64,000 nt of DNA from Armatimonadota bacterium (GCA_041690135.1 JAWLHY010000007.1:160001-224000); one strand, 5' to 3'. Counted from the stretch's first letter, positions 1 to 13,107 are shown. Numbers and translations are program-made. Notes: a model not told the origin generated them from the sequence alone.

Positions 1-634
1 AGATGGCTTCCGTTTCGGGGAAATCGGGGAAGCGAGACTCTTCCCAGCCGTGGATGCGGGCCAGGGCTCCCCGGGGGCCCGAGGCATCCACCACGAACCG
101 GGCCCGGTACGTCTCCGTCTGACCCTGCCGGGATCCCTTCAACTCCACGGAGAGGCCGTCTCGGTCCAACGTCTTCAGGTCGAACCGGTCCCGGTATTCT
201 GCTCCCAACTGCTGGGCTTCCCGCACCAGGAAGTGGTCGAACTCCGAGCGGTACCAATGCGTATCCGCGACAGCGTCGTTGGGAGAGGCGGCGACCAGGA
301 GCTGCCGATCGGGGCTCTCGGCCGGATCATTGGCTACCCCCTCGGGATGGTGATAGAAGCTGAACCCGCGCTTGAGGCCTACGGTCAGCTCCGGGTAGGC
401 GGTGCGCCAGGTCCCGTAGGCGGTGAGCGGGAGCAGGCGGGGCAGGTCGTATGTCCGGGCGATCTCTTCCAGCAGCAGGTTTGCCAACGGCGAGGTCGAT
501 TCTCCGATGGCAAAGCGAGGATGGCTGCCGCGCTCCAGCATCAGCACGCTCAAACCCAGGCGCCGGCCGATCATGCCCAGCAGCGAGCCGGCAAAGCCGG
601 TGCCCAAAACGACAAGGTCGAAAGCGTGCGTCAC
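1..634 (-). CDS. FAD-dependent halogenase-like oxidoreductase (PrnC/CtcP-type), 5' part; runs off the window edge
   Basis: Not in the ORF track; translated by hand from GTG 634, which overlaps the radical SAM TGA (GTGA): MTHAFDLVVLGTGFAGSLLG (GxGxxG) ... ERGSHPRFAIGESTSP ... GLKRGFSFYHH ... THWYRSEFDHFLVREA ... RFVVDASG. Frame is open to position 1. Confidence 0.8.
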   Translation of the reverse strand, partial: MTHAFDLVVLGTGFAGSLLGMIGRRLGLSVLMLERGSHPRFAIGESTSPLANLLLEEIARTYDLPRLLPLTAYGTWRTAYPELTVGLKRGFSFYHHPEGVANDPAESPDRQLLVAASPNDAVADTHWYRSEFDHFLVREAQQLGAEYRDRFDLKTLDRDGLSVELKGSRQGQTETYRARFVVDASGPRGALARIHGWEESRFPDFPETEAI

Positions 635-1614
635 GAGCAACTCCGGCACGTCACGGGATCGATGATTTCCTGGCGGGCATTCATGAACCGGAGGCGTTGG
701 GCCCGCCCCTCCGCGCACTCCGCACAGGTCGCGAACTGCTCCAGGTCCCAGAGGTCCGCGAGGACGCGCCCTGCCCCCAGGGAGAGCCCAAACTCGAGGG
801 CGGCCTCTACCGAGTGCAGGGTCGGAGGCGAGAACTCCCCATCAGCCTGTAACGCCTCCATGGCGCCGTTCCCTGCTCGGGTGGGGATGAGCGAGCAGGT
901 CTCCGCACCGCACTCGAAGGCAAACTCCAGCGAGCGCTTCGCCCACTCCACTCCTTCGGCCTCCGTCATCCACGGGGGGCGGACCAGTAGGAACACTCGG
1001 AGCGCGACCCCTTCCTGCTTCAGCTGCCGCGCCGACTTCCGGAACTGCTCCAGCGTCATCCGCTTGTTCAGCCGGTCCAGCACCACCGGATGGACCGTCT
1101 CCAGTCCCATGGCGATTTCCAGGCGAGGGCCGGTCCGACCACTCTCCGTCAGGAGGTCACGGAACCGCCACGTCCGGCGTCCGATGACTGCCGGGTGACA
1201 CTCCACAATAACGCGTTCGAAAGGCGCCGCCAGGGCGGCAATCTCCGCGTACTCCGCGGGGGGGATCGCCGCCGGGTCGAAGAAGCTGCCGGCGTTGTAC
1301 AGTTTGAGTTGTCGAGCCGGTTCCAGGCGTTCCAGCGCATACCGGATCTGCGCCGCGATTGCCCCGTCCGGAACTGTTCCCTCCAGCGTGTTCTGCCAGA
1401 GGTCGCACATCAGGCAGCGATACGGGCATTCCCGGTTCGTGAGCAGGACCGTGCCAATGGGGATTTCTCCGCCACCGAGATTCGGCTCCGTCTCGTTGAA
1501 GAACGCATAGGGAAGCCGCGGGTCCAGCCGGTTCCGCGGCCCCCGTCGCTCCAGGATCCAGCGATCCCGGTCACTTGCGTTCAAGTATCCCAGCGCTTGG
1601 TTGTAATTCGACAC
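631..1614 (-). CDS. Radical SAM protein, TIGR01210 / RaSEA (archaeosine synthase beta)-like
   Basis: CPYRCLMC (CX3CX2C), KLYNAGSFFDP, EIAMGLET, FLLVRPPW, PPTLHS, and C-terminal CAEC...CRSC. Confidence 0.85.
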   Translation of the reverse strand: MSNYNQALGYLNASDRDRWILERRGPRNRLDPRLPYAFFNETEPNLGGGEIPIGTVLLTNRECPYRCLMCDLWQNTLEGTVPDGAIAAQIRYALERLEPARQLKLYNAGSFFDPAAIPPAEYAEIAALAAPFERVIVECHPAVIGRRTWRFRDLLTESGRTGPRLEIAMGLETVHPVVLDRLNKRMTLEQFRKSARQLKQEGVALRVFLLVRPPWMTEAEGVEWAKRSLEFAFECGAETCSLIPTRAGNGAMEALQADGEFSPPTLHSVEAALEFGLSLGAGRVLADLWDLEQFATCAECAEGRAQRLRFMNARQEIIDPVTCRSCS

Positions 1615-1788
1615 AGAAGGACACAGAGACTACAGAAAGGACACAGAATTCGAATCGGCAGGTGTGTCTTGGAATGTTCGGCACCTTTCCCCATGGGGCT
1701 CTCCGGTGAGATTGGGGACCTTCGGTTTCCTCTCCATTGTTCGGAATCTGTGTTCCCTCTCGTCCACTCTGTGTCCCTCTGTGTCGAA
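1607..1788. repeat. About 180 bp intergenic element bounded by imperfect inverted repeats built from ACACAGA units
   Basis: tcgacacagaaggacacagag (1608-1628) versus ctctgtgtccctctgtgtcga (1767-1787), 20/21 complementary; inner pair 1641-1654 / 1740-1753. Confidence 0.7.
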
Positions 1789-1791
1789 GAA

Positions 1792-3171
1792 TCATCCAGC
1801 CCCGGCGGGGATGTAGTTGCCGGAGAGGCGTTCGGCTTCCGGGTCCCAGGCGGTGCTCAGGCGCTCCTCCCACTGGCGCAAGAAGACACGACGGCACCAG
1901 GCTTTGCTGACCCGCCAGGCCCGGTAAGATTCGCCGGCGCCCTGCTGGAAGCGGCGCTTGGGAAAGACCGGCATCCGGGCTCCGGTGACCGCTTCGATGC
2001 CCGCCCGTACTACTTCCGATTTCAGGTGGTAAAGCCGTTCGGCACTCCCCTCGATGAGTTGTTCGAACGGAATGGCCAGGGAGGCCGCGATAGCACTGCG
2101 GGTGGTGAAGGGGCTGAAGGCGGTGAACCCGGTGGCGCGGGCCGGAGCGTACGTGCGCACATAGGCCCGCGAGAGCCCGCCCGAATAGGTGAGGCTATGC
2201 TTGATGGCTTCGATGCCCCAGCCTTCCTGGTAGAGCAGCGGGTTCCGGAGCACGCTGGAGATCGTGAGGTCGGAATCTTCCAGGGGGTACGACTTGAGGT
2301 TTTCGTCGCCGCCGTCGCCGTCCAGGAGATAACGCAGCGAGGGGTACCGCTCGCGGATGGCATTCAACAGGAGCAGGCTGGCCGCGGCGCACTCCACGTC
2401 GAGCGGGTGATAGTCCTCGAGGATGCGGATGGTGCCCTCCAGGTCCGGGCGCGCGCCTTCGAGCCGGCAGACTTCCCAGGTATGTTCCAGGCCCAGTTCC
2501 CGGACGAACCGCTCGGCCTGCGCGGCATCTTCCCCGCCGCCGAGGTCCAGGGTGAACGCCCGCACCAGGTCCGGATTGCGTCCCAGTTCCGCCATGGCCC
2601 GACGGGCCAGCAGGAGCATCGCACCGCTGTCGACACCCCCTGAAAACAAAACGGCGACCGCTTCACCTTCGGGAACGCTGCGCAGCCATTCACGGGCCGA
2701 AGCGTAAGCGGCCTCAACATACGCGGTTCCCAGGGTCGGGATGTCGGCCGGCCCCTGGGCGATCGGCGGGTTGAAGAACCGGTGATAGCGCGGGTTCGGG
2801 TCCGGACAGCCGATCTGATCGATCTCCACCAGATAGTGGGCCGGAATCATCCGGGTGTAGAGGGGATCGAACTGCCAGCCGATCTTCTGCTCGCAGCAGT
2901 ATTCGTACAGCCGGTCGATGCGGTCCGCGACGACTAGGTACGGACCGTGAAACATCTTTGCCACGAAGTAGCGGAGGGGCAACCCGATGGTCCGCGCCAG
3001 CCGCACCGTCTGTCCGTCGCGGGCTACGGCGGCGAAATGGCCGTCCGTCCGCTCCAGCCGGGTGATGTCCCCCTCGTGCACTGCTGCCGCGATCTCTTCC
3101 GCGGTCGCGCCGACCAATCCGGAGACCCGCGGCCCGTCCAGGTCGACCAGTCGTTCCACTCCCATCAGCAT
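1792..3171 (-). CDS. Asparagine synthase-related N-type ATP pyrophosphatase with a degenerate glutaminase domain
   Basis: PP-loop LFSGGVDS, LDGDGGDE, FSPFT; GAGGAG upstream favours ATG 3171; no Cys after the initiator Met. Confidence 0.85.
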   Translation of the reverse strand: MLMGVERLVDLDGPRVSGLVGATAEEIAAAVHEGDITRLERTDGHFAAVARDGQTVRLARTIGLPLRYFVAKMFHGPYLVVADRIDRLYEYCCEQKIGWQFDPLYTRMIPAHYLVEIDQIGCPDPNPRYHRFFNPPIAQGPADIPTLGTAYVEAAYASAREWLRSVPEGEAVAVLFSGGVDSGAMLLLARRAMAELGRNPDLVRAFTLDLGGGEDAAQAERFVRELGLEHTWEVCRLEGARPDLEGTIRILEDYHPLDVECAAASLLLLNAIRERYPSLRYLLDGDGGDENLKSYPLEDSDLTISSVLRNPLLYQEGWGIEAIKHSLTYSGGLSRAYVRTYAPARATGFTAFSPFTTRSAIAASLAIPFEQLIEGSAERLYHLKSEVVRAGIEAVTGARMPVFPKRRFQQGAGESYRAWRVSKAWCRRVFLRQWEERLSTAWDPEAERLSGNYIPAGAG

Positions 3172-3451
3172 GGCATTCTTCTCCTCGGCGATGGCTCTCA
3201 CACCCTTCAGCAATTCTACGGAACTCCGGCAGTCCCGGAGATGAAAGCTTTTTAAGCTCCGCGCGCGAAGACTTATCTCATGGCGCCGGACTGTTGCCCC
3301 GCAATTCCTTTCCCGTGCTGCCGAGTTGATGTGAGCCGCCTACCGGTAATGCGGCACACGCAACCGCCCAGACTTCGTATCCGGTTTTGGTGAAGGAGCG
3401 GGGAGCTGCAGGCGGGGAACTAACCAGCATAACGGGGAAGGGAGCGGGCAC

Positions 3452-4531
3452 ATGGATCGACGGCAAGTGTTGTGGGTAGGCCTGGCCGGGATCGGGACCG
3501 TGCTGGCGGGGTGCGGCGGCCCGGAGGGAGAGGGGGCTACCGGTACAACCCCGGCGTCCGGCAGTGCATTGAAGCTAGGAATGGTGACTGATACGGGCGG
3601 CATCGGCGACCAGTCGTTCAACATGATGGCGTGGCGTGGCCTCGAGCGCGCGAAGCAGGAGTTGGAGGCGGAAACCACGCTGGCAGAGTCGTCGCAGGTC
3701 TCCGACTACACCCCTAACCTCCAGCGCCTGGCCGAGCGGGGTTGCAAGGTGATCTTCGCCGTGGGGTTCGCCCTGGAAAAGGCCGTGGGAGAAGTGGCTC
3801 CTCGCTATCCGGACACCCGTTTCGTCCTGATCGACGTTGAGGGGCCGAAGCTGGACAACGTCGCCGGGCTGGTGTTCCGCGAAGAAGAAGGCGCCTATCT
3901 GGCGGGCGCCCTGGCCGGCGGCATGAGCCGGTCCGGTAAACTCGGCTTCGTCGGCGGGATGGAGATTCCGCTCATCAAGCGGTTCGAGGCGGGTTATCGT
4001 GCGGGCGCCCGGACTCTTAATCCGGCTACCACGGTGGAGGCGAAGTACACCAACAACTGGGTCGATGTGGCGAAGGGCAAGGAGCTGGCGCTCTCGCTCT
4101 TCGGAGGCGGCGCGGATATCGTGTTCCATGCCTCCGGCGCCTGCGGTCGCGGGGTGATCGAGGCCGCGAAAGAAAAGGGAGACGGCTACTGGGCCATCGG
4201 CGTCGACGCGGATCAGGACCACCTGGGCACCGCGGACCCGGAGCATCCGGAGCCTCCCTCCCGCGTGCTCACCAGCATGATGAAGCGAGTGGACAACGTC
4301 GTCTTCGCGATCTGCAAGGAGTCCGCCACCGGCTCCTTCGCCGCCGGTCCCCGGGTCTTCGGCGTGAAGGAAGAGGGTGTGGGGCTCTCGCCGATGACCT
4401 ACACCAAAGAGGCGGTACCGGCGGAGTTGCTCGCACGGGTGGAAGTGCTGCGGACCATGATCGCGGACGGACAGCTCAAGCCGCCCCGTTCCCTGGGGGA
4501 ACTGGAGACCTGGAAGGCCCCGTCGGTTTAA
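3452..4531 (+). CDS. BMP family (PnrA/TmpC-like) substrate-binding lipoprotein
   Basis: Lipobox LAGC; GGIGDQSFN, FREEEGAYLAG, AIGVDADQ, TSMMKRVD. Confidence 0.92.
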   Translation: MDRRQVLWVGLAGIGTVLAGCGGPEGEGATGTTPASGSALKLGMVTDTGGIGDQSFNMMAWRGLERAKQELEAETTLAESSQVSDYTPNLQRLAERGCKVIFAVGFALEKAVGEVAPRYPDTRFVLIDVEGPKLDNVAGLVFREEEGAYLAGALAGGMSRSGKLGFVGGMEIPLIKRFEAGYRAGARTLNPATTVEAKYTNNWVDVAKGKELALSLFGGGADIVFHASGACGRGVIEAAKEKGDGYWAIGVDADQDHLGTADPEHPEPPSRVLTSMMKRVDNVVFAICKESATGSFAAGPRVFGVKEEGVGLSPMTYTKEAVPAELLARVEVLRTMIADGQLKPPRSLGELETWKAPSV

Positions 4532-5049: not shown

Positions 5050-6036
5050 TCAGGCCCCGCCTCGCGCCGGTGGGTTGCGGGCGATGGAGATACTGCGCTT
5101 GTTGATGACCTTCTGCGACACCACCCGCAGGGGACCGGGCAACGCCCCCGAGTTCAGCACCACGGCCATGTAGCCGGCCTCGTCCGGACCGCTTAAGGTC
5201 AGGTTCACATCCAGGGTGTCGTCGGGATTGCTCGGCAAAGGTGCCGCAGAGATGCCTGGCAAGGCGGCGGGGGAAGGGGGAGGTGTTGCACCTGGCTTCC
5301 CCTTTTTTTCTTTCTTCGGGCGGGGCGGCCGGGCCAGGGCAGTGACGCCCTGCATCTGACCGTCCAAGACGATCGCCACGAGTTGTGGTTTCCGCGAGAA
5401 GGAGCGGATACGTCGTGCCGCCTTCTCCGTTAGATGGATACGCATCGTGGCCAGCGTGCCCCTGCCGGAAGGTTGGACCGAATCCGGTTCGAAATCGCCC
5501 GTGTCCAGCACCACCGGGCAGCGCTTCAGGACGGCTTCCGTGGGGATGATCCGGGAACTCTTCAGGTCGCGAAAGCGGAGCTGCGAATCTCCCTGGATAG
5601 TCCGAACATCGAGAGCAATCCGGCCGTTCTCGTTAAACGAGGTCCTTACGTCTTCAAGATGCCGGACTTCCAGCCGGCCCGCGGTGCACAGCACCTTGAG
5701 CTGGAGCTCGTCTACTCGCACGGAAGGCACCCACATGGTGAGGTTCTCCAGGCTCCGCGCCACTACCGTGCCGTCCTTGGAGCCGAAAATCGCCAGGCGA
5801 CGCTTGAGTACCTCCTCAACCTGCTTGAGGTCCACTTTCTTTAGCCGTTGCGGGTTGGCGCGCGTGCGATCCACCGCCAGCCGGATCTCGGTGACGAACT
5901 CATCCGGCTCCTGGGTCTTCCCCCCCGGCTCTTGCGCCTGGCCGCCCGCCGTTCCTCCGGCCAGCACCAGCAGCAACCCGATCCCGATCCCGCGTCGGGA
6001 TACTCTCAGTCCGGACCCCGCGTTGGCTCGTTTCAT
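5050..6036 (-). CDS. Secreted protein resembling the SecD periplasmic P1 domain, without the SecD membrane domain
   Basis: Signal peptide; VEEVLKRRL, AGRLEVR, VAIVLDG and VVLNSGALPGPLRVV match SecD P1 hallmarks. Confidence 0.65.
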   Translation of the reverse strand: MKRANAGSGLRVSRRGIGIGLLLVLAGGTAGGQAQEPGGKTQEPDEFVTEIRLAVDRTRANPQRLKKVDLKQVEEVLKRRLAIFGSKDGTVVARSLENLTMWVPSVRVDELQLKVLCTAGRLEVRHLEDVRTSFNENGRIALDVRTIQGDSQLRFRDLKSSRIIPTEAVLKRCPVVLDTGDFEPDSVQPSGRGTLATMRIHLTEKAARRIRSFSRKPQLVAIVLDGQMQGVTALARPPRPKKEKKGKPGATPPPSPAALPGISAAPLPSNPDDTLDVNLTLSGPDEAGYMAVVLNSGALPGPLRVVSQKVINKRSISIARNPPARGGA

Positions 6037-11048: not shown

Positions 11049-11335
11049 CGGCGGGGCCCTCCCCGCCGAAACATCTTGAGCATCCGGTCGGTGATCAAGA
11101 AGCCGCTGACGATGTTGATGACGGCAGCCGTTACCGCGATGCCGCCGAGGAGGGTGCTCAGGGGACTCTTCTGTTCACCCAGGAGGACCAGGGCCCCGAC
11201 GACGCTGATGGCCGAGATGGCGTTGGTCAGGGACATCAACGGCGTGTGCAGGAGCGGCGAGACGCGCCGGATCACCTCGAGACCGACGAACGTGGCCAGG
11301 ACGAAGACATACAGGTTGTTCAGGATCGAATCCAC
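11045..11335 (-). CDS. pntAb: NAD(P) transhydrogenase subunit alpha part 2 (membrane)
   Basis: LHTPLMSLTNAIS, GFLITDRMLKMF; ATGA overlap with pntB. Confidence 0.95.
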   Translation of the reverse strand: MDSILNNLYVFVLATFVGLEVIRRVSPLLHTPLMSLTNAISAISVVGALVLLGEQKSPLSTLLGGIAVTAAVINIVSGFLITDRMLKMFRRGGPRR

Positions 11336-11347
11336 GGCCGAGCCTCC

Positions 11348-12499
11348 TTACTCCAATCCCAGTTTCTTCCGCACACGGGGGTGCACCACTTCTCCGCCGC
11401 GCGTCACCAGCGTTTCGCGCGTGATCTCGTCTTCCAGATCCAGGGCCAGCGAGCCGTCGCGAGCCAGGTGGGTCAGGAACGTCGCCACGTTCTTCGCGAA
11501 AAGCTGGCTGGCGTTGTAGGCCAGGGTCGCCGGCAGGTTGAGGGGCCCCATCACCTGCACGCCGCCGTGGAGCACCGTTTCGCCGGGTTGGGTCAACTCG
11601 CAGTTGCCGCCGCGCTCCGCCGCCAGGTCCACCACCACCGCCCCGGGCCGCATGCGGTCGACCATCGCCCGGGAGACGAGGACCGGCGCGCGTTCTCCAG
11701 GGATCGCGGCGGTGGTGATCACGATGTCGCTTTCGGCCACCACGGGGAGCATCAGCTCGGCTTGCCGGGCGTAGAACTCCTCGCCCATCGCCTGTGCGTA
11801 ACCCCCGCTCCCCGCGGCGCCCTCGCTGGCGAGCTCGAGCTGCAGGAAGCGGGCGCCGACGCTTTCCACCTGCTCCTTCACCGCGGGCCGGACGTCGTAG
11901 GCGGTCACCACGGCTCCCAGGCGCTTTGCCGTGGCGATCGCCTGGAGGCCCGCCACCCCGGCGCCGACCACAAACACCTTGGCCGGGGCGATGGTCCCCG
12001 CCGCGGTGATCATCATGGGCAAGATGCGCGGGAGGTGGCCCGCGGCCAGCAGCACGGCTTTGTAACCGGCCAGGTTGGCCTGGGAGGAGAGCACGTCCAT
12101 GGCCTGCGCCCGGGTGATCCGCGGCAACAGCTCCAGGGCGAAGGTGGTCAGGCCGCGCCGGGCGGCGGCGGTGGCGGGGTGGGGGATCGATAGCGGGTCC
12201 ATCATCCCGATCAACACCTGCCCTTCGCGGCAGTGGCCCAGGTCCGCCTCATAAAGCTCCGGGTTGGCGCCGAGGGCGCGGACTCCCAGCACCACGTCCG
12301 CGCCGAACACCGCCTCCCGCGCCTCGACCAGCTCCGCTCCGGCCTCGCGGTACTGGGGGTCGAGGAAGCCGGCCTCGGCTCCGGCGCCGGCCTCGATCCG
12401 CACCGTGAACTTCCCCTTCACGAGCTGTGCCACGGTGGTGGGCACCAGGGCGACACGCTTCTCCCCGGGGAAGGTCTCCTTGGGAACACCGACGATCAC
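11348..12499 (-). CDS. pntAa: NAD(P) transhydrogenase subunit alpha part 1 (NAD-binding domain I)
   Basis: GTG start after GGAGG; IVGVPKE..GEKRVALVP, RAQAMDVLSSQANLAGY, GAGVAGLQA. Confidence 0.95.
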   Translation of the reverse strand: MIVGVPKETFPGEKRVALVPTTVAQLVKGKFTVRIEAGAGAEAGFLDPQYREAGAELVEAREAVFGADVVLGVRALGANPELYEADLGHCREGQVLIGMMDPLSIPHPATAAARRGLTTFALELLPRITRAQAMDVLSSQANLAGYKAVLLAAGHLPRILPMMITAAGTIAPAKVFVVGAGVAGLQAIATAKRLGAVVTAYDVRPAVKEQVESVGARFLQLELASEGAAGSGGYAQAMGEEFYARQAELMLPVVAESDIVITTAAIPGERAPVLVSRAMVDRMRPGAVVVDLAAERGGNCELTQPGETVLHGGVQVMGPLNLPATLAYNASQLFAKNVATFLTHLARDGSLALDLEDEITRETLVTRGGEVVHPRVRKKLGLE

Positions 12500-12630
12500 C
12501 GTTCCGCCCTCCGACCTCTCCGGCGGCACCTGCTCCAGGCAAACAGCCGGATGAGTGGTAGTTGTTTTGAATAGAACCGGATGCGCTGACCTACATATAC
12601 AGCGAAATGGGTTCCGGCCGCCGCTTTGCT

Positions 12631-13107
12631 TTACTCTCGTCCGGTGGGGTCGGCTAACTGCCAGCCACCGTCCAGGAGGGGAACCGTGGCGCAGGCAGGT
12701 TTCCCGTGGCGCCCAATCCCGGAGACACGGGCTTCCAGCACGCGCGTCTCCGCCACGGCCCGCTCCACGATCTCCCAGGGGATGGACGTGAGCGGAACCT
12801 TCATCCGCCCGTAACGCTCCCGGAGCCCGCCCTGGCACGCGGTCCAGGTGAGGTACAGGAAACGTTCCCCCGGCTTACCGTGAGCCCACTCCCCAAGAAA
12901 ATTGGGGCCTCCGGTCTTGGGGTCCCGGCGTACCCGCACGGAGATCTCGAATTCGGCGCGCTCGGTGGATTGCCGGGTCGGCGGACAGGACGCCTCCCCC
13001 TTCTGGATCCCGATTTCGATCTCCGTGAGCTCTCCGCACTCTTTCGGCGGCAGCGGCTCGCAAACCACCCGCAACTGCACCAGCGACTCGCTTTCCGGCT
13101 TCGACAA
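12631..13107 (-). CDS. DUF5990-like protein
   Basis: GPNFLGEWAHGKPGERFLYLTW...PACATV pattern; TTG start after AAGGAG. Confidence 0.7.
   Translation of the reverse strand: MSKPESESLVQLRVVCEPLPPKECGELTEIEIGIQKGEASCPPTRQSTERAEFEISVRVRRDPKTGGPNFLGEWAHGKPGERFLYLTWTACQGGLRERYGRMKVPLTSIPWEIVERAVAETRVLEARVSGIGRHGKPACATVPLLDGGWQLADPTGRE

Follow-up and report, generated by a model that had tools for sequence, protein, structure and literature searches.

As a rule, flavin-dependent halogenases, whose motif is WxWxIP, tailor the products of large antibiotic clusters and have a scattered, strain-specific occurrence; PltM is the phloroglucinol halogenase of Pseudomonas protegens and CtcP the tetracycline 7-halogenase. 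The radical S-adenosylmethionine (SAM) enzyme QhpD and the flavoprotein QhpG serve the cytoplasmic maturation of the small subunit of quinohemoprotein amine dehydrogenase, a periplasmic system, and LodB and GoxB modify residues for quinone cofactors. Among AsnB enzymes, an N-terminal Cys-1 nucleophile defines the N-terminal nucleophile (Ntn) glutaminase class. A paper on ammosamide C reportedly names a halogenase, a radical SAM enzyme and an asparagine synthase together, in a cluster for a ribosomally synthesized and post-translationally modified peptide (RiPP) with a peptide aminoacyl-tRNA ligase (PEARL). We analysed a stretch of 64,000 nucleotides from an Armatimonadota bacterium (positions 160001-224000 of contig C7 in genome G000, the whole of it called the window hereafter), at the left end of which a halogenase gene with intact catalytic hallmarks is tied to the genes of a radical SAM enzyme and of an unusual asparagine-synthase-fold ligase in a minimal cassette. 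The genome (9.1 Mb in 25 contigs, 65% G+C) is 97% complete. We propose, with slightly less than even confidence, that the cassette is a cytoplasmic small-molecule pathway consisting of amide formation, a radical step and halogenation.

A conserved three-gene cassette

Calling of open reading frames (ORFs) at the left end of the window returned, on the minus strand, the frames 1792..3213 (473 residues), 631..1614 (327 residues) and 2..718 (open at the edge). The first encodes the asparagine-synthase-like ATP-dependent ligase. Alignment with 36 orthologues places its start at the ATG at 3171 (MLMGVERL...) and not at the TTG at 3213, which gives a gene at 1792..3171 for a protein of 459 residues with the PP-loop SGGVDS; an earlier note on this DNA had ended the gene at 3171, and that position is indeed the conserved ATG. 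The radical SAM gene (631..1614, 327 residues), TIGR01210/RaSEA-like, with a CxxxCxxC motif and a C-terminal four-cysteine motif, ends in ...TGC TCG TGA (633-631), and the frame of the flavin-dependent halogenase-like gene begins with GTG ACG CAC (634-632), the stop of one and the start of the other sharing GTGA at 631-634. The three genes that the earlier note had seen within 1..3171 are therefore present there in different degrees: the ligase and the radical SAM genes are whole, but only the first 211 codons of the halogenase-like gene, from its GTG start, lie in the window (1..634, minus strand), and 925 nucleotides extend beyond its edge. In the contig DNA the full gene runs at 11075-12634 on the minus strand of the surrounding locus L001 and encodes 519 residues. 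As the WD40-repeat gene (1083 residues) that follows it is convergent, the operon has exactly three genes.

Relatives were scored among 8000 candidates, 7146 for the radical SAM protein and 7976 for the ligase, and the best 120 of each were examined, the remainder being unvetted. These best relatives share 55-100% (radical SAM) and 71-93% (ligase) identity with the window proteins and carry generic names only, such as 'radical SAM protein', 'archaeosine synthase beta-subunit' and 'asparagine synthase-related protein'. For the gene neighbourhood, the best 80 of 374 related stretches were taken as a locus sample, with one genome per species scanned. By record title the loci belong to Acidobacteriaceae, Bryobacteraceae, Blastocatellia, Armatimonadota/Chthonomonadales, Abditibacteriota, Verrucomicrobiota (Pedosphaera) and Isosphaeraceae (Planctomycetota), and a metagenome-assembled genome of Chthonomonas calidirosea is among the carriers; single bins labelled Actinomycetes, Heliobacteriaceae and Bifidobacterium also matched, with labels that we do not trust.

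The ligase gene lies upstream of the radical SAM gene, on the same strand and within 3 kb, in 68 of the 74 loci with enough upstream DNA, and the halogenase gene lies downstream in 70 of 74. Both flank it in the same order in 60 of the 69 loci with enough flank, the nine without both being L012, L021, L036, L047, L050, L052, L054, L058 and L073. The 4-nucleotide overlap between radical SAM stop and halogenase start, which the earlier note had reported for the window and which is real in the sequence, recurs in 38 of 74 other loci; the two genes overlap otherwise in 10 loci, and in 18 the script found no start codon at the expected place. Since both the overlap and the gene order recur, the trio forms one conserved unit and not a chance neighbourhood. 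In one relative, genome G010, the ligase and radical SAM genes are separated by an inserted serpin gene (at L004:7709-8920; PF00079, E 2.4e-106).

The phyletic pattern agrees with this. The sample of the window's phylum comprised 41 genomes, with a completeness of 90% or more in 35; strong matches to the radical SAM gene came from 15, a sixteenth (G011) being a fragment of 29% identity, and the ligase is present in exactly the same 15 genomes. The halogenase is found in 14 of these and is missing only from G007, which is 88% complete and has the locus at a contig end. The earlier note had made co-occurrence in other genomes the test of its operon, and the three genes do co-occur, all together in 14 genomes of the 41. 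Proximity is not always kept: in G027 a distance of 68 kb separates the halogenase gene from the ligase and radical SAM genes, and the trio of G012, G018 and G031, though dispersed over other contigs, still co-occurs. In 31 loci with full-length trios, the pairwise-identity matrices of the three proteins correlate with r 0.81-0.88 (0 of 999 permutations as high), a correlation due in part to the species history that the three proteins have in common. Rare fusions join the radical SAM protein to the halogenase (P0244, P0246 and P0247, both parts near full length) or the ligase to the radical SAM protein (P0242, P0243 and P0245); they lend weak support, because they are single records and several others look like frameshifted assemblies.

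The literature searches, which left supplementary tables and subscription journals outside, found no paper on the trio or on 'TIGR01210', in keeping with the earlier note, which knew of no characterised pathway with these three genes. No model of NCBIfam release 20 claims any of the three proteins, and PADLOC gave no match either to them or to two proteins of the envelope module described below, on which ground a role in defence was discarded. Although each enzyme belongs to a known superfamily, neither the cassette nor the ligase subfamily with an N-terminal domain of its own nor the tie to an FG-GAP/RnfD-like module appears to have been described.

Ligase, radical SAM protein and flavoprotein

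The ligase matches the Asn_synthase family PF00733 over residues 185-318 (E 7.5e-16) and reaches 41.8 bits against the AsnB equivalog TIGR01536, under its cut-off of 267. In 37 sequences the PP-loop residues S191, G192, G193, D195 and S196 are invariant, the protein start is conserved as M-L-x-G-V-E-R-L, and a cysteine at position 2 occurs in none. An AlphaFold (AF2) model computed on the alignment (predicted local distance difference test, pLDDT, 83; predicted TM-score, pTM, 0.85) was compared with solved structures using Foldseek. The top match was beta-lactam synthetase 1mbz (E 1.4e-13, TMq 0.60, 469 columns), and the whole-length matches were beta-lactam synthetase, AsnB, TsnB9 and CarA; for beta-lactam synthetase, TsnB9 and CarA the E-values run from 1.4e-13 to 3.5e-10 and the TM-scores are about 0.5-0.6, the carbapenam synthetase CarA, 1q15, matching at E 8.4e-11. 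Identity to the chains of the beta-lactam synthetase/CarA type is 12-18% in the structural alignment. A PDB search with the single ligase protein found no solved chain with a sequence match, the alignment profile retrieved only the AsnB PP-loop region (E 4.1e-05), and the Protein Atlas search returned only 'asparagine synthase-related' clusters.

The N-terminal domain of the ligase has its own invariant residues in the 37 sequences, among them R81, Y82, K86, H126, C136 and D138. A phmmer search with its 164 residues gave 306 matches at E<=0.001 among 1.84 billion representatives; the best 150 of these are fragments or proteins of at most 519 residues, most of the full-length ones having about 440-460. 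As the matches among these best 150 have the length of the ligase family, the domain is specific to it. A maximum-likelihood tree of 62 ligase sequences, quick, unfinished and unrooted, splits into two deep clades with 100% support in the Shimodaira-Hasegawa-like approximate likelihood ratio test (SH-aLRT), identities being about 45-50% between the clades versus 60-93% within them. Both clades include the window's phylum and Acidobacteriota, a pattern that would fit either transfer between phyla or an old duplication followed by losses. The ligase subfamily to which the window copy belongs has a C-terminal extension of about 40 residues (W-R-V-S-K-x-W-C-R...S-G-N) that the other subfamily does not have, and the radical SAM and halogenase partners show no comparably sharp split by identity to the window proteins.

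For the radical SAM protein the best family is TIGR01210 (RaSEA), at E 9.7e-28 and 97.3 bits, and a genome scan found it to be the sole TIGR01210-like gene of G000 (96.9 bits). Since 97 bits fall far below the cut-off of 212.15, the protein is not a RaSEA orthologue. C63, C67 and C70 of the CxxxCxxC motif are invariant in 32 sequences, and the C-terminal cysteines C297, C300, C323 and C326 are kept in at least 90% of them. The AF2 model (pLDDT 94) is a generic barrel with Elp3, the pyruvate formate-lyase activating enzyme (PFL-AE) and LipA as top structure matches; no PDB sequence relative was found with the single protein, and the profile gave chance-level rows only at E<=1.

The likeness to RaSEA invites a model in which, as for archaeosine, the ligase adds an amine donor to a tRNA base, the RaSEA-like enzyme cleaves the adduct, and the flavoprotein halogenates or hydroxylates the base. 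Many PP-loop ATPases do act on tRNA, and the ligase-radical SAM fusions mentioned above would suit enzymes that work together, as one study describes for ArcS, active only in its complex with RaSEA (PMC11298593). We nevertheless regard RNA or nucleoside modification as very improbable. Besides the low RaSEA score, the upstream partner was never of the ArcS type in the loci examined; QueC was not found in the 97%-complete G000, where PF06508 gave only a 27-bit fragment covering model positions 2-54; and that genome has a single TGT-family gene (PF01702). The ligase fold is nearer to small-molecule enzymes, with tRNA enzymes of the TilS/TtuA type only at ranks 47-48 of the Foldseek list (TM 0.22), and neither the patchy distribution nor the link to envelope proteins suits a translation function. 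The modified nucleoside that the earlier note had offered as an alternative product is thus disfavoured, the cassette travelling instead with periplasmic and membrane proteins and an ABC importer.

The full flavoprotein scores 30.8 bits against the Trp_halogenase family PF04820, over the cut-off of 21, and with it the three gene identities of the earlier note hold, that of the radical SAM protein at a score under the family cut-off. Its description of the halogenase as 'PrnC-type' has to be replaced: the closest solved chains by sequence are the tetracycline 7-halogenase CtcP (5.5e-46) and the phenolic halogenase PltM (2.5e-45), and the variant-B halogenases CndH, CmlS and PltA are remoter solved matches. 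In 30 sequences G11, G13, K88, W254, W256 and L258 are invariant and G16 is kept in at least 90%, and the GxGxxG flavin site and the GES motif are preserved. K88, in G-L-K-R-G-F, stands opposite Lys87 of PltM in C-G-I-K-L-G-F, a residue which the PltM study describes as catalytic, the K87A variant being inactive (PMC6424973).

In NCBIfam, in contrast with the solved structures, the top match of the flavoprotein is QhpG (NF049967, 62.8 bits vs a cut-off of 240), and LodB and GoxB (cut-off 400 for both) and CmlS (53.5 bits vs 900) are also among the best, all of them far under their cut-offs. This brings up the maturation of a protein or peptide, in which the radical SAM enzyme and the flavoprotein would modify residues before export, as in QhpD/QhpG or LodB/GoxB, and the ligase would form an amide or isopeptide bond; a periplasmic protein that co-occurs with the cassette is a possible target. 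The very high conservation across phyla would suit such a role, as would the exported FG-GAP/ASPIC proteins and the NapH/MauN-like and YtkA/FixH-like proteins found with the cassette and the strongly conserved, family-specific N-terminal domain of the ligase, hence a possible docking surface. However, the similarity to PltM and CtcP (E ~1e-46) is much stronger than any of these NCBIfam scores, the halogenase lysine is invariant, no small conserved ORF or substrate gene adjoins the trio, and the NapH/MauN match is itself weak (36.4 bits vs 213). We therefore consider maturation unlikely, while giving it some weight beside the small-molecule pathway that we prefer.

Envelope module, importer and flanking DNA

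When the ORFs of all 91 loci were clustered, several neighbours of the cassette recurred: a protein of about 600 residues with FG-GAP and UnbV_ASPIC domains (46 loci), a larger TPR/FG-GAP/ASPIC protein (39 loci) and a membrane protein of about 290 residues with a weak RnfD/NqrB Pfam match (32 loci). A NitT/TauT-type ATP-binding cassette (ABC) importer accompanies them in up to 16 loci and DUF169 in 11; the binding protein of the importer is SsuA-like (TIGR01728, 124 bits vs a cut-off of 163). Both L040 and L066 have the nine genes of module, importer and trio joined in a single co-directional string. In G000 the module lies apart from the trio, on contig C1 and thus outside the window, where the part at L092:5712-12103 is 51-64% identical to the acidobacterial copies and the whole, of six genes, spans L092:2522-12103 in a gene order that recurs in the acidobacterial locus L097. 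Its first three genes encode a protein of 233 residues without a family, a YtkA/FixH-like protein (57.7 bits) and the weakly NapH/MauN-like one, and its last three a TPR/FG-GAP/ASPIC protein of 1226 residues, an FG-GAP/ASPIC protein of 599 residues and an RnfD-like membrane protein of 291 residues.

The RnfD-like gene follows the trio through the genomes. Of the 15 trio genomes in the phylum, 13 have it, the exceptions being G003 (69% complete) and G007 (88%); of the 26 without the trio only G025 does, and so do all five trio genomes to which loci had led. Among 81 sampled Acidobacteriota genomes, for which there are no completeness figures, it was found in three of the five that are positive for the radical SAM gene (one of these five, G069, being flagged as unpublished) and in none of the 76 negative ones.

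An importer encoded with the trio could also mean that the compound comes from outside. Under catabolism or salvage, a soil compound, perhaps freed by the FG-GAP/ASPIC proteins, would be taken up and converted by the trio, with the flavoprotein halogenating an aromatic ring or, in practice, oxygenating it. The importer is co-directional with the trio in L040 and L066 and lies nearby in many loci of Acidobacteriaceae, and the trio is almost confined to genomes with the envelope module, which can stand alone (G025), as would be expected of an add-on to an uptake system. On the other hand, G000 has no such importer beside the trio or the module, the permease and binding-protein representatives giving no match at 1e-8. 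Catabolic routes seldom use amide ligation at the expense of ATP or radical SAM chemistry, both of which are costly, the hallmarks of a halogenase are preserved, and there is no conserved regulator or riboswitch of the sort typical of catabolic operons. We hold this explanation to be quite unlikely.

Seven loci of Acidobacteriaceae contain, in addition, a protein of about 100 residues with a twin-arginine translocation (Tat) signal, a G-F-T-C-x-T-C motif and a sub-threshold HMA match (20.1 vs 24.8 bits), encoded for instance at L039:5490-5795 and L074:2651-2983, between the ABC binding-protein gene and DUF169 and just upstream of the ligase gene. As a lead, the neighbour genes together suggest a periplasmic system for redox or metal handling. 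Among the neighbours conserved across the 91 loci there was no carrier protein, precursor peptide, lasso B protein or RNA-modification gene, and no lasso peptide set of precursor peptide, B protease and RiPP recognition element (RRE).

Within the operon, the 177-nucleotide spacer between the ligase and radical SAM genes (1610..1785, minus strand) is bounded at both ends by a 19-nucleotide inverted repeat, GACACAGAGGGACACAGAG and its complement with one mismatch, the 3' arm of which overlies the radical SAM start codon. The region 1610-1785 folds with -69.7 kcal/mol (z -3.7; 0 of 200 shuffles as good). The 19-mer has two matches in the window against 0.01 expected and 47 in the genome with up to three mismatches, several of them as inverted pairs about 70-210 nucleotides apart. 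Because of this genome-wide recurrence, partly as inverted pairs, the spacer is a copy of an element like a miniature inverted-repeat transposable element (MITE) or a repetitive extragenic palindrome (REP), inserted within the operon. In other genomes the median gap between the aligned ends of the two genes is 108 nucleotides. A scan of L001:10300-15600 found no promoter-like sites and three terminator-like sites against 3.9 expected, and was uninformative. No riboswitch or leader was found in eight loci (134,678 bases, Rfam gathering scan), the only matches being two of Acido-Lenti-1 in L066. The search of sequencing runs found no RNA run carrying the genome; it gave two runs only, whose shares of the sampled words were 0.08 and 0.06.

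Upstream of the ligase gene and divergent from it lies a gene for a Bmp/PnrA-type lipoprotein (3452-4531). It was tried as a member of the system and rejected, since none of the other 90 loci has a homologue. Farther along, a minus-strand ORF of 328 residues (5050-6036) without a Pfam family has a weak SecD-like match (TIGR01129, 37.4 bits vs 244) and may encode a secreted protein like the periplasmic domain of SecD. To the left of the window, by 6.9-9.5 kb, the minus strand of L001:2476-5139 encodes a protein of 887 residues with TIR_2 and AAA_35 domains, which looks like a signalling or defence protein of the STAND (signal transduction ATPases with numerous domains) type; after it come an ORF of 361 residues without a family and an ORF for a sigma factor of the extracytoplasmic function (ECF) type.

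A possible pathway and its known relatives

In the small-molecule pathway that we favour, the ligase, which has no glutaminase nucleophile, would use ATP to adenylate a carboxylate and would then form an amide bond with an amine partner or within the molecule, a step modelled on beta-lactam synthetase, carbapenam synthetase and TsnB9. The RaSEA-like radical SAM enzyme would come next, with a radical rearrangement or a C-N or C-C cleavage of the ligase product, and the PltM/CtcP-like flavin halogenase would place Cl or Br on an electron-rich carbon of phenol-, enol- or pyrrole-like character, using FADH2, O2 and halide. The product may serve the periplasmic and membrane module of TPR-FG-GAP, FG-GAP/ASPIC and RnfD-like proteins, often with the NitT/TauT-type importer, or may be fed by it. 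We prefer a small molecule as the substrate because the closest relatives of the flavoprotein, CtcP and PltM, act on free phenolics, because the fold relatives of the ligase all act on small molecules, because the conserved neighbourhood is free of carrier proteins, precursor peptides and RNA enzymes, and because an importer and envelope proteins travel with the cassette.

Several observations speak against this proposal. The WxWxIP site of the flavoprotein reads G-W-I-W-V-L-R, in which both tryptophans and the leucine are invariant but the I and P of the motif are replaced by L-R. Identity of about 50-70% across phyla is unusually high for a secondary-metabolite cluster, and so is the presence of the cassette in whole families (six of six genomes in the window's family); both features would suit a housekeeping or protein-maturation role as well. 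Because related genomes are not independent samples, the evidence is weaker than the co-occurrence counts make it look. Genome G025 carries the envelope module without the trio, in the Acidobacteriota G069 and G102 the radical SAM gene is unaccompanied by any strong RnfD-like match, and the ABC importer in the trio operon of L040 and L066 fits catabolism or salvage equally well. Of the overall interpretation in the earlier note, the identities, the coupling and the co-occurrence stand; the proposed chemistry of amine-donor ligation, radical C-N cleavage and then halogenation draws solely on the sub-threshold RaSEA likeness and on fold class, and the C-N cleavage finds no specific support, the radical SAM protein being so far under the RaSEA cut-off and its fold matches generic.

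The same neighbours allow a bolder idea, which we offer as speculation and think rather improbable: the cassette would make an undescribed amide, halogenated or cryptically halogenated, that acts as a redox or metal-binding cofactor or as a metallophore for a periplasmic machine. That machine would consist of the FG-GAP/ASPIC beta-propellers and the RnfD-like, NapH/CcoG-like and YtkA/FixH-like proteins, joined in some Acidobacteriaceae by the Tat-exported HMA-like CxxC protein, and the whole system would have been transferred horizontally among at least five soil and peat phyla.

As the cassette is maintained across several soil phyla, it probably makes a small molecule not yet described and possibly halogenated. 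Its carriers belong to the dominant, biochemically little-known bacteria of soil and peat, namely Acidobacteriota, Planctomycetota (Isosphaeraceae), Armatimonadota, Verrucomicrobiota and Abditibacteriota. Should the product carry a halogen, soils would have in this cassette a widespread biological source of organohalogens, and combined radical SAM and halogenase chemistry would gain a new example; otherwise the halogenase fold would have found a new use. The cultured carriers Paludisphaera borealis, Singulisphaera sp., Planctomyces sp. SH-PL62 and the Abditibacteriota isolate IAD-21 make the cassette testable.

Set against the systems it most resembles, the cassette shares with the ArcS-RaSEA pair of Euryarchaeota a radical SAM protein that matches RaSEA, whose partner, encoded upstream, could add a group for it to process, the ligase and radical SAM genes of the cassette having one phyletic pattern. 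It differs in that the partner is an ATP-dependent ligase of the asparagine-synthase fold and not a TGT/PUA-type ArcS, and in being bacterial, with an added halogenase, a link to the envelope and no QueC found in G000. With beta-lactam synthetase, CarA and TsnB9 the ligase has in common the two-domain AsnB fold over its whole length, the PP-loop and the absence of the Cys-1 nucleophile; unlike them, it has an N-terminal domain with invariant residues of its own, and the partner genes of carbapenem and clavam pathways are absent. The combination of a radical SAM enzyme with a flavoprotein of the halogenase fold recalls QhpD and QhpG, the latter heading the NCBIfam list, but the score is low (62.8 vs 240), there is no QhpC-like substrate gene, and the radical SAM subfamily is a different one. 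The closest likeness by sequence is to PltM and CtcP, with which about 400 residues of the flavin-binding halogenase fold align (E 2.5e-45 and 5.5e-46) and with which the flavoprotein keeps GxGxxG, GES, the catalytic lysine (PltM Lys87, here K88) and the two tryptophans of WxWxIP, its motif ending in L-R and not I-P. The C-terminal 110 or so residues of PltM do not align with the flavoprotein; the PltM study describes this region as shaping the substrate pocket (PMC6424973). The context of the cassette, finally, is neither that of a polyketide nor that of pyoluteorin, and its halogenase gene is translationally coupled to the gene of a radical SAM enzyme.

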